Below are positions 61,311 through 61,494 of a stretch of DNA of 64,000 nucleotides, piece by piece. The notes under the pieces are model-generated. The model was not told the DNA's origin. It did not search any database and was given only the letters and a program-made list of their open reading frames with translations. The DNA comes from an uncultured Bacilli bacterium. Lineage in GTDB: Bacteria; Bacillota_I; Bacilli_A; RF39; UBA660. Each line of letters opens with the position of its first letter. Position 1 is the first letter of the stretch. A program made the translations under genes and the position numbers. The DNA lies in the NCBI GenBank assembly GCA_934162665.1, contig CAKPJN010000001.1, forward strand, positions 52,834-116,833, written 5' to 3'.

Positions 61311-61494
61311 GTCAGAGAGATACGACAACTTGCTTATATAAAACCGACTAAATTGACGATACGGGAGTTTTGATTTTTCTATCGGTGTTGAATACCTACA
61401 TATTGTAGGGATCCTAATGGTAGAATAGAGACACCCACCTGTACATAGGGACAGGTTTTATCGTTGCAAGAAGCGTACTCATCTGACTTTTTTT
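61311..61494 (+). ncRNA. ssrS: candidate 6S RNA (SsrS-like)
   Basis: About 185-nt non-coding stretch whose 5' end (GTCAGAGAGATACGACAACTTGC) pairs with its 3' end (GTTGCAAGAAGCGTACTCATCTGAC) as a long interrupted helix; internal hairpin CCTACAtattGTAGGG; lies between aspS and the yrvM/tcdA-like gene, where Bacillus 6S-1 (bsrA) sits. Confidence 0.5.

Follow-up and report, generated by a model that had tools for sequence, protein, structure and literature searches.

A very probable 6S RNA gene between aspS and tcdA in an uncultured low-GC gut bacterium

Genes at the locus

The window (by which we mean the entire 64-kb stretch of DNA that we analyzed) contains, in this order, hisS (57696-59078, + strand), aspS (59114-60433, +), an alpha/beta-hydrolase gene (60454-61233, −), a putative 6S RNA gene (61311-61494, +), a conserved open reading frame that we call orf277 (61546-62370, +), tcdA (62342-63052), and lexA (on the − strand). 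The segment with the putative RNA is 40% GC, as compared to 26.5% for the window and around 24% for the flanking genes. The initial annotation had placed a candidate 6S RNA between aspS and tcdA. The RNA does lie in that interval, but the interval is not a plain intergenic region, as the hydrolase gene and orf277 are inserted on either side of the RNA.

To compare this locus to others, we used 30 tcdA loci from other genomes (L001 to L030). These were found with the TcdA-like protein (62342-63052) by searching one genome per species, so the choice of loci was independent of the RNA. The nearest tcdA loci (50-66% identity) are from uncultured gut MAGs that are labelled as Bacilli, Firmicutes, or Tenericutes. 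The best tcdA identity was 66%; among the 6S homologues, the closest has around 75% identity to the window's. Seven loci from Actinomycetota (L024-L030) served as negative controls. In the literature on 6S RNA in Mollicutes or Tenericutes, we found nothing usable.

The hydrolase matches Abhydrolase_1 from Pfam. Its best match in NCBIfam is to an EstV-family lipase, at 153 bits, which is below the cutoff of 300. The gene is divergent from the promoter of the 6S RNA, and the two promoters must share the 77-nt divergent spacer (61234-61310). The hydrolase gene keeps this position in L001, L002, L003, L005, and L018; it is absent from L013, where aspS directly precedes the 6S RNA.

We did not find any family for orf277 in Pfam or NCBIfam. 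Homologues (40-58% identity) are found in L001, L002, L003, L005, and L018, while L004 and L013 lack orf277. Translation of orf277 starts at the GTG at 61546, not at 61537. The gene has its own promoter on the + strand (61496-61524), with TTGATA, a 17-nt spacer, and TGaTATAAT (11/12 matches to the consensus; the −10 box is at 61519-61524). All six of the orf277-containing loci conserve the TGnTATAAT, a ribosome-binding site (GAGGTG), and a start of the form (A/G)TGTTAAT. The last 29 nt of orf277 (62342-62370) are shared with the start of tcdA, suggesting that the two genes are co-transcribed or translationally coupled.

Several of the genes upstream are unusual in their own right. The aspS of the window encodes a 439-amino-acid archaeal-type non-discriminating aspartate--tRNA(Asn) ligase (NF003483, 474 bits, cutoff 353), which would imply that Asn-tRNA is synthesized by transamidation. 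The aspS of L002 is of the same type (81% identity to the window's). In L005, L013, and L018, the aspS at the same position after hisS is only 29-31% identical to the window's, and the spacing of the alignments suggests a longer protein, possibly of the bacterial type. It looks like one type of AspRS was displaced in place by another at this locus. The C-terminus of hisS (around 58960-59078) encodes an unusual tail that is rich in Asp, Cys, and His (...DNFDDCDCGCDDDCYCDDSCDCDGSCGGDCHCHHHE) and that looks like a metal-binding extension. The tblastn alignment of HisS to L018 reaches residue 460, and the alignments to other loci stop at around residues 420-433; the tail may be conserved in L018. 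Directly upstream of hisS-aspS is a T-box leader (RF00230; 57488-57657, +; 97 bits, with a gathering score of 93). Finally, a 391-amino-acid open reading frame (56292-57467, +) has no convincing family in NCBIfam: its only match is to a model for the alpha subunit of RNA polymerase, at 16 bits, far below the cutoff. Its HELGH motif is suggestive of a zinc metallopeptidase.

Matches to the 6S RNA family and related loci

6S RNA is a small RNA that mimics an open promoter and holds back RNA polymerase. The founding member of the Rfam family (RF00013) is 6S RNA from E. coli (ssrS). The initial annotation had proposed a search with this family's covariance model. Using cmsearch, we found a match to RF00013 at 61307-61492 on the + strand. 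The match has a score of 46.0 bits, covers the entire model (positions 1-187 of 187), and is not truncated. When only the 501 nt from 61150 to 61650 were scanned, with sensitive settings, the E-value was 3.7e-8; for the full 64 kb, in E-value mode, it was 4.7e-6.

The curated gathering score for RF00013 is 46.4, so this match falls short by 0.4 bits. A default scan of the whole window with Rfam's gathering scores did not report 6S RNA because of this difference, which is an effect of the threshold rather than the absence of the RNA. The gathering cutoff was set by convention, for the purpose of annotation, and does not mark a biological property. We also checked for a second copy (similar to 6S-2), using both an E-value scan with Rfam and our own model of the clade (R1, described below), and found none in the 64-kb window.

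A low Rfam score is typical of this clade. We compared 20 independent members, all from the same locus, to RF00013 in E-value mode. Fourteen of them pass the gathering score (47.8-70 bits), five are below it (33.7-44.8 bits), and one was not reported at E ≤ 0.01. In other words, 6/20 members (about 30%) are below the gathering score or unreported. Similarly, a survey of lactic acid bacteria found that 6S RNAs of Weissella were below the thresholds of covariance models, and these were recovered by synteny-guided searches (PMC8414754).

The default scan of this window also omits two tRNA matches (493-566, +, and 678-765, +). These were found only by the scan in E-value mode, with scores of 59.8 and 49.6 bits (the gathering score is 29), and seem to have been dropped by the default speed filters in AT-rich sequence. 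Thus, default scans of this DNA miss more than the sub-threshold 6S RNA.

Among the 30 loci, eight related MAGs have a 6S RNA that scores above the gathering score (47.9-85.4 bits) and that lies just before tcdA, in the same orientation. The scores were 85.4 bits for L010, 56.7 for L018, 56.2 for L002, 54.8 for L013, 52.8 for L001, 51.3 for L005, 50.3 for L004, and 47.9 for L003. When aligned to the window, these eight orthologues have a mean column identity of 72%. For the other loci (L006-L009, L011, L012, L014-L017, and L019-L030), no 6S RNA was found within the fetched flanks of tcdA, which says little for some of them, because their contigs end upstream of tcdA (for example, L011).

We built our own covariance model (R1) from a 9-sequence MAFFT alignment that was fitted to no model (A3) and from the conserved structure. 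The putative 6S RNA of the window scores 194 bits against R1. In the window and the 30 genome loci, R1 matched only the nine sequences that it was trained on. For sequences outside the training set, we scanned metagenome contigs for three motifs (AAAACCKACTA ... GTGTTGAA ... CCCACCTG), which were found in at least 120 contigs, mostly from human gut and rumen samples. We took 80 loci from these contigs, and all 80 had full-length matches to R1 (84-180 bits). A larger alignment of 72 distinct sequences (A6) was fitted to the model.

The order of the genes, as determined by tblastn, also links these loci. L002 has the same order as the window, hisS-aspS-hydrolase(−)-6S-orf277-tcdA-lexA(−). In L001, L003, L005, and L018, we found hydrolase(−)-6S-orf277-tcdA-lexA(−), and in L004, we found 6S-tcdA-lexA(−). 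L013 has hisS-aspS-6S-tcdA, with no insertions. The ancestral order of aspS-6S-tcdA survives in L013, and the hydrolase gene and orf277 were inserted in the window's sub-lineage. The initial annotation had relied on the location of 6S-1 RNA (bsrA) in Bacillus, and this argument holds up: 6S-1 of B. subtilis lies in the interval between aspS and yrvM (tcdA), according to PMC10578484 and PMC3923129 (which cite Suzuma 2002), and this is the type of locus that L013 keeps. The linkage of aspS, 6S RNA, and tcdA, which was known from Bacillus, extends to deep-branching low-GC Bacilli.

The value of this finding is mostly annotation hygiene, as a housekeeping regulatory RNA from an abundant uncultured lineage of the gut and rumen is just under Rfam's cutoff. 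Because this gene and about 30% of its relatives are below the cutoff, annotation pipelines leave the 6S gene unannotated, and they may call a spurious 60-amino-acid open reading frame on the opposite strand. Such genes would be recovered by using R1, A6, and the genomic context (hydrolase or aspS, then 6S, then optionally orf277, then tcdA). The identification as 6S RNA is correct but ordinary, and it opens no new biological question.

Transcription signals and the conserved fold

Upstream of the RNA, a consensus scan identified a −35 hexamer (TTGAAT, 61275-61280, +) and an extended −10 box (TGgTATAAT, 61296-61304, +), separated by an 18-nt spacer and with 10/12 matches to the consensus. This promoter points to G61311, which is 7 nt after the −10 box, as the probable start of transcription. 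The initial annotation had described a good extended −10 promoter, and conservation bears this out: TGnTAyAAT is invariant, and at a fixed distance from the RNA, in all 8 of the relatives from genomes. Among 67 independent homologues from metagenomes, at least 57 have a −10 box at the same fixed position (39 with the TGn extension); this is a lower bound because our search pattern missed boxes of the TATACT type. Most of the 8 relatives from genomes have a TTG in the −35 zone, but among the 57 metagenome homologues with the −10 box, only 28 do.

At the other end of the RNA, seven T's (61488-61494, +) come directly after the 3' strand of the closing stem. This U tract and the closing stem are probably an intrinsic terminator, which would also define the 3' end of the RNA. 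Five of the T columns are invariant in 6/6 close relatives, and a run of at least five T's is found at the 3' end of the RNA in 61/68 homologues. At the level of sequence, the RNA's own promoter, the U tract, and the separate promoter downstream fit an independent transcription unit on the + strand.

The + strand of this region has a minimum free energy (MFE) of −54.4 kcal/mol (z = −4.49), and none of 200 dinucleotide shuffles folded as well. The predicted structure is a rod with a closing stem, a central bubble, and an apical stem, which is the architecture that the initial annotation had proposed. The ends are extensively complementary, as had been claimed: G61311-C61333 (+) pairs with G61466-C61487 (+) to form the closing (terminal) stem, which is present in the MFE fold and supported by covariation. 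Next to it is helix P2, in which AUAAAACC (61338-61345, +) pairs with GGUUUUAU (61454-61461). The 3' strand of P2 overlaps UAUCGUU (61459-61465), which is one strand of the putative collapse helix (see below), and these together span 61454-61465 (+). The claim of a less-paired centre also stood, as the centre is present and conserved. The 5' side of the central bubble (61346-61362, +), which RNAalifold left unpaired, contains GACGAUA (61355-61361), and the 3' side (61437-61456, +) includes a small hairpin with a UGU/ACA core, which RNAalifold identified de novo. Between the two sides of the bubble is the apical (internal) stem-loop arm (61363-61436, +), with an invariant GGG/CCC clamp and with compensatory changes in A6.

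We used several alignments to check this structure for covariation. Given a MAFFT alignment of eight sequences, RNAalifold predicted 38 pairs de novo, 19 of them with compensatory changes, and recovered the terminal stem, the apical arm, and the small hairpin in the 3' side of the bubble. We also projected the window's MFE fold onto A3. Some of the MFE pairs within the bubble (C42-G144 and others) were specific to the window and not conserved, so we dropped them and added the conserved 3'-bubble hairpin; this modified structure was used for A3 and R1. In A3, 85.0% of cells were paired, versus 40-52% in slid controls, and 22/52 pairs had a compensatory change, versus 7-12 in slid controls. In A6, 87.7% of cells were paired (31-49% when slid), 38/51 pairs had a compensatory change (19-26 when slid), and 656 cells were changed on both sides (54-173 when slid). 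The observed covariation score was reached by 0/500 shuffles in A3 and also in A6, but these shuffle statistics are inflated by the relatedness of the sequences.

The support varies across the structure. All 19 pairs of the closing stem (helices 1-5 in A6) have compensatory changes, and the outermost helix is 98% paired. In the apical arm, 16/21 pairs covary in A6, and helices 7-11 in that alignment are rich in compensatory changes, such as CG:38/UA:32 and UA:37/AU:28. P2 is paired in 93-95% of cells and is almost invariant, so P2 and the template motif are supported by conservation and not by covariation. Two biases favour the structure: we tested the window's own MFE fold, and the alignments A4 and A6 were fitted to a model. 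A3 and the RNAalifold prediction are free of the bias from model fitting, and they agree with A6. Covariation strongly supports a 6S rod of about 180 nt, with its closing stem, central bubble, and apical stem.

The minus strand also folds strongly (z = −5.33). Because it folds about as well as the + strand, the fold energy indicates a real structure and not which strand encodes it, and we rejected the z-score as an uninformative way to choose the strand. Instead, we assigned the RNA to the + strand because of the match to the covariance model, the promoter and terminator, and the ratio of G.U to A.C. In A6, there are 340 G.U cells and 73 A.C cells, which favours the + strand, and the cells that are 87.7% paired when read as the + strand are 79.9% paired when read as the minus strand.

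Overall, the 6S RNA proposed by the initial annotation is backed by a full-length match to RF00013, by eight syntenic orthologues above the threshold, and by covariation in alignments of 9 and of 72 distinct sequences. We regard this stretch as very probably a 6S RNA gene of the ordinary kind, carried by an uncultured gut bacterium with a low GC content. We are highly confident that 61311 to about 61492 (+) encodes a canonical member of the 6S family, of the 6S-1 type known from Bacillus.

Predicted product RNA and release of polymerase

While bound to 6S RNA, polymerase can use it as a template for a short product RNA (pRNA). The CCGAC of the window aligns to the CCgAa of the RF00013 consensus. 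In E. coli, the nucleotide after CCGA is U44, which is the start site of the pRNA. In B. subtilis, the pRNA of 6S-1 starts at C40 (PMC8876501) and its sequence is 5'-GUUCGGUCAAAACU-3' (PMC10578484), so the template there is ...CCGAAC. The homologous base in the window is C61348, which is nt 38 from the predicted start of the RNA, and we infer that the pRNA starts here. Because the base is a C, the pRNA is predicted to be initiated with GTP. The predicted template is 61335-61348 (+), as read 3' to 5' from C61348 and as located by aligning the CCGAC motif; the pRNA computed from it would be 5'-GUCGGUUUUAUAUA (in short form, 5'-GUCGGUUUUAUAU), and its start, antisense to the same positions, would be 5'-GUCGGUUUUAU. 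GTP initiation is a feature of 6S-1, which is an efficient template, while 6S-2 initiates with ATP (PMC3923129).

AAAACC[G/U]ACUA is invariant in nine sequences that were found through tcdA and not through this motif. The templating base is C in all nine of the genome-derived sequences (given the predicted start site) and in all 72 distinct rows of A6 (which is partly enforced by the search pattern). Because the motifs were themselves the search pattern, the conservation of P2 and of the template motif in the metagenome set is partly circular, and the invariance of AAAACC[G/U]ACUA there carries no weight.

We then constrained the folding by masking the 14 nt of the template, and nearly all of the nine homologues refolded in the same way. 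The 3'-bubble hairpin lengthens to ACCUGU/ACAGGU, and GACGAUA (61355-61361) pairs with UAUCGUU (61459-61465). The latter pairing corresponds to the central bubble collapse helix known from 6S-1 of B. subtilis, which joins the distal part of the 5' bubble to the 3' strand of P2 (PMC8876501). Across 72 sequences, the extended 3'-bubble hairpin is 94.8% paired. The collapse helix is 80.6% paired, versus 24-42% in slid controls, and has 24 compensatory cells, versus 2-14; for example, a C-G pair is replaced by U-A in L018. By a weaker measure (the number of pairs with a double change), 55/500 shuffles do as well as the real alignment. R1 treats the columns of the collapse helix as unpaired, so this pairing does not come from fitting the alignment to the model. 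The capacity for this rearrangement is moderately supported, and its actual use is suggested by analogy.

We considered whether this RNA might be something other than a free-standing 6S RNA. It could instead act in cis, as a riboswitch or attenuator in the 5' leader of the orf277-tcdA operon, as it lies on the same strand and just 50 nt upstream, its linkage to tcdA is conserved in nine loci, and a stem followed by a U tract also resembles an attenuator. However, a separate and conserved extended −10 promoter lies between the U tract and the ribosome-binding site of orf277. Also, the RNA and its U tract are kept whether the next gene is orf277 or, as in L013, tcdA; in L004, the RNA is directly before tcdA and has no U tract. 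The conserved blocks correspond to the bubble motifs of 6S RNA, and 6S is the RNA's only significant match in Rfam, with no matches to riboswitch families. We consider a leader to be extremely unlikely. More generally, the initial annotation had recognized that the region might be the 5' UTR of the downstream open reading frame. This is contradicted by the conserved U-tract terminator, and we rule it out because orf277 has its own promoter and because L004 and L013 have the RNA without orf277. As for the minus strand, the open frame at 61379-61561, with its TTG start, might encode a 60-amino-acid protein, in which case the RNA-like features would be incidental. We give this practically no credence. 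The frame has no match in Pfam and is not conserved (the longest minus-strand stretches without a stop codon are 37 amino acids in L002 and 30 in L013), and it extends over conserved signals of orf277 (the promoter, ribosome-binding site, and start). Furthermore, the substitutions track base-pair covariation and not codon periodicity. The initial annotation was right to view this frame as spurious and the region as lacking coding potential.

Another alternative is that the RNA descends from 6S RNA but has diverged in function, either as a paralogue similar to 6S-2, which would bind RNA polymerase but lack efficient pRNA-driven release, or as a decaying copy. (Whether B. subtilis 6S-2 has efficient pRNA-driven release is debated.) The Rfam score is below the threshold, and our view is limited to 64 kb of the genome, so another 6S copy might exist elsewhere. 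But sub-threshold scores are normal in this clade (6/20 independent members), the window contains no second copy, and the locus is the 6S-1 locus. Moreover, conservation extends to P2, the collapse helix, the promoter, and the terminator, and the predicted initiating nucleotide is G, as in 6S-1, while 6S-2 starts with A (PMC3923129). A diverged function is very unlikely.

If this is a 6S RNA of the 6S-1 type, as we believe, then its own extended −10 sigma-A promoter would drive transcription from at or near G61311, and the transcript would end at the U tract that follows its closing stem. The RNA would fold into a rod whose closing stem, large central bubble, and apical stem mimic an open promoter. 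It would fill the active site of RNA polymerase (the housekeeping holoenzyme), so that transcription would be lowered when nutrients are scarce. During outgrowth, the polymerase would transcribe the RNA, beginning at C61348 with GTP, to make a short pRNA (5'-GUCGGUUUUAUAU...). Extension of the pRNA would unwind P2 (AUAAAACC/GGUUUUAU), and the freed 3' strand of P2 would extend the 3'-bubble hairpin and pair with GACGAUA to form the central bubble collapse helix. The promoter mimic would then collapse and release the polymerase. The binding of polymerase, the start site of the pRNA, the release, and the physiological role are all modelled on E. coli and B. subtilis.

The putative 6S RNA is similar to 6S-1 from B. 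subtilis in most respects. Besides the type of locus, both share the rod architecture with a small 3'-bubble hairpin that is preformed in the free RNA. The B. subtilis pRNA is initiated with G and templated from C40, and the pRNA predicted here would also be initiated with G, from nt 38, so both would begin around 40 nt into the RNA. The templates are similar (CCGAAC and CCGAC), and the pRNAs are GUUCGGUCAAAACU in B. subtilis and, as predicted, GUCGGUUUUAUAU here. The collapse helix of B. subtilis, in which the 3' strand of P2 pairs with the distal 5' bubble (PMC8876501), could also form here. On the other hand, the RNA described here has a much lower GC content (40%) and a weak Rfam score, its 3'-bubble hairpin can gain three pairs when P2 opens, and two genes (the divergent hydrolase gene and orf277) have entered its locus. 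B. subtilis 6S-1 is made as a longer precursor with a 5' extension. Its maturation involves RNase J1 (PMC10578484), whereas here the primary transcript may already be mature.

Like 6S RNA from E. coli, the RNA aligns along the full length of the family's model, has the same three-part architecture, and has a CCGA-N motif for the start of the pRNA at the homologous position (U44 in E. coli). In E. coli, the pRNA unwinds the downstream helix and the 3'-bubble hairpin grows (PMC8876501), as we predict here. In contrast, the E. coli pRNA begins with A, and release there involves a long hairpin of 9 bp and no collapse helix. The E. coli RNA is also cut from a longer precursor by RNase E/G and is expressed from two promoters (PMC10578484), and the genomic context is different. 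In Lactobacillales, as in this window, there is a single 6S-1-like RNA with a TATAAT −10 box, a rho-independent terminator, and strong local synteny (PMC8414754). The flanking genes there are rarA and uspA (PMC8414754), while here they are the hydrolase gene and orf277-tcdA, with lexA beyond. These differences are minor, and none of them is outside the known variation of the 6S family.

Taking the E. coli-like and Bacillus-like features together, it is conceivable, if somewhat doubtful, that this clade uses a hybrid release, in which the 3'-bubble hairpin grows, much as in E. coli, from three to six pairs and a Bacillus-like collapse helix forms as well, and that the RNA is possibly made in its mature form. 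Processing may be unnecessary because the predicted start is also where the closing stem begins and because that stem would double as the terminator. If this is correct, then the clade would have a compact variant of 6S RNA, in which one 12-nt segment (GGUUUUAUCGUU) would switch between three partners.
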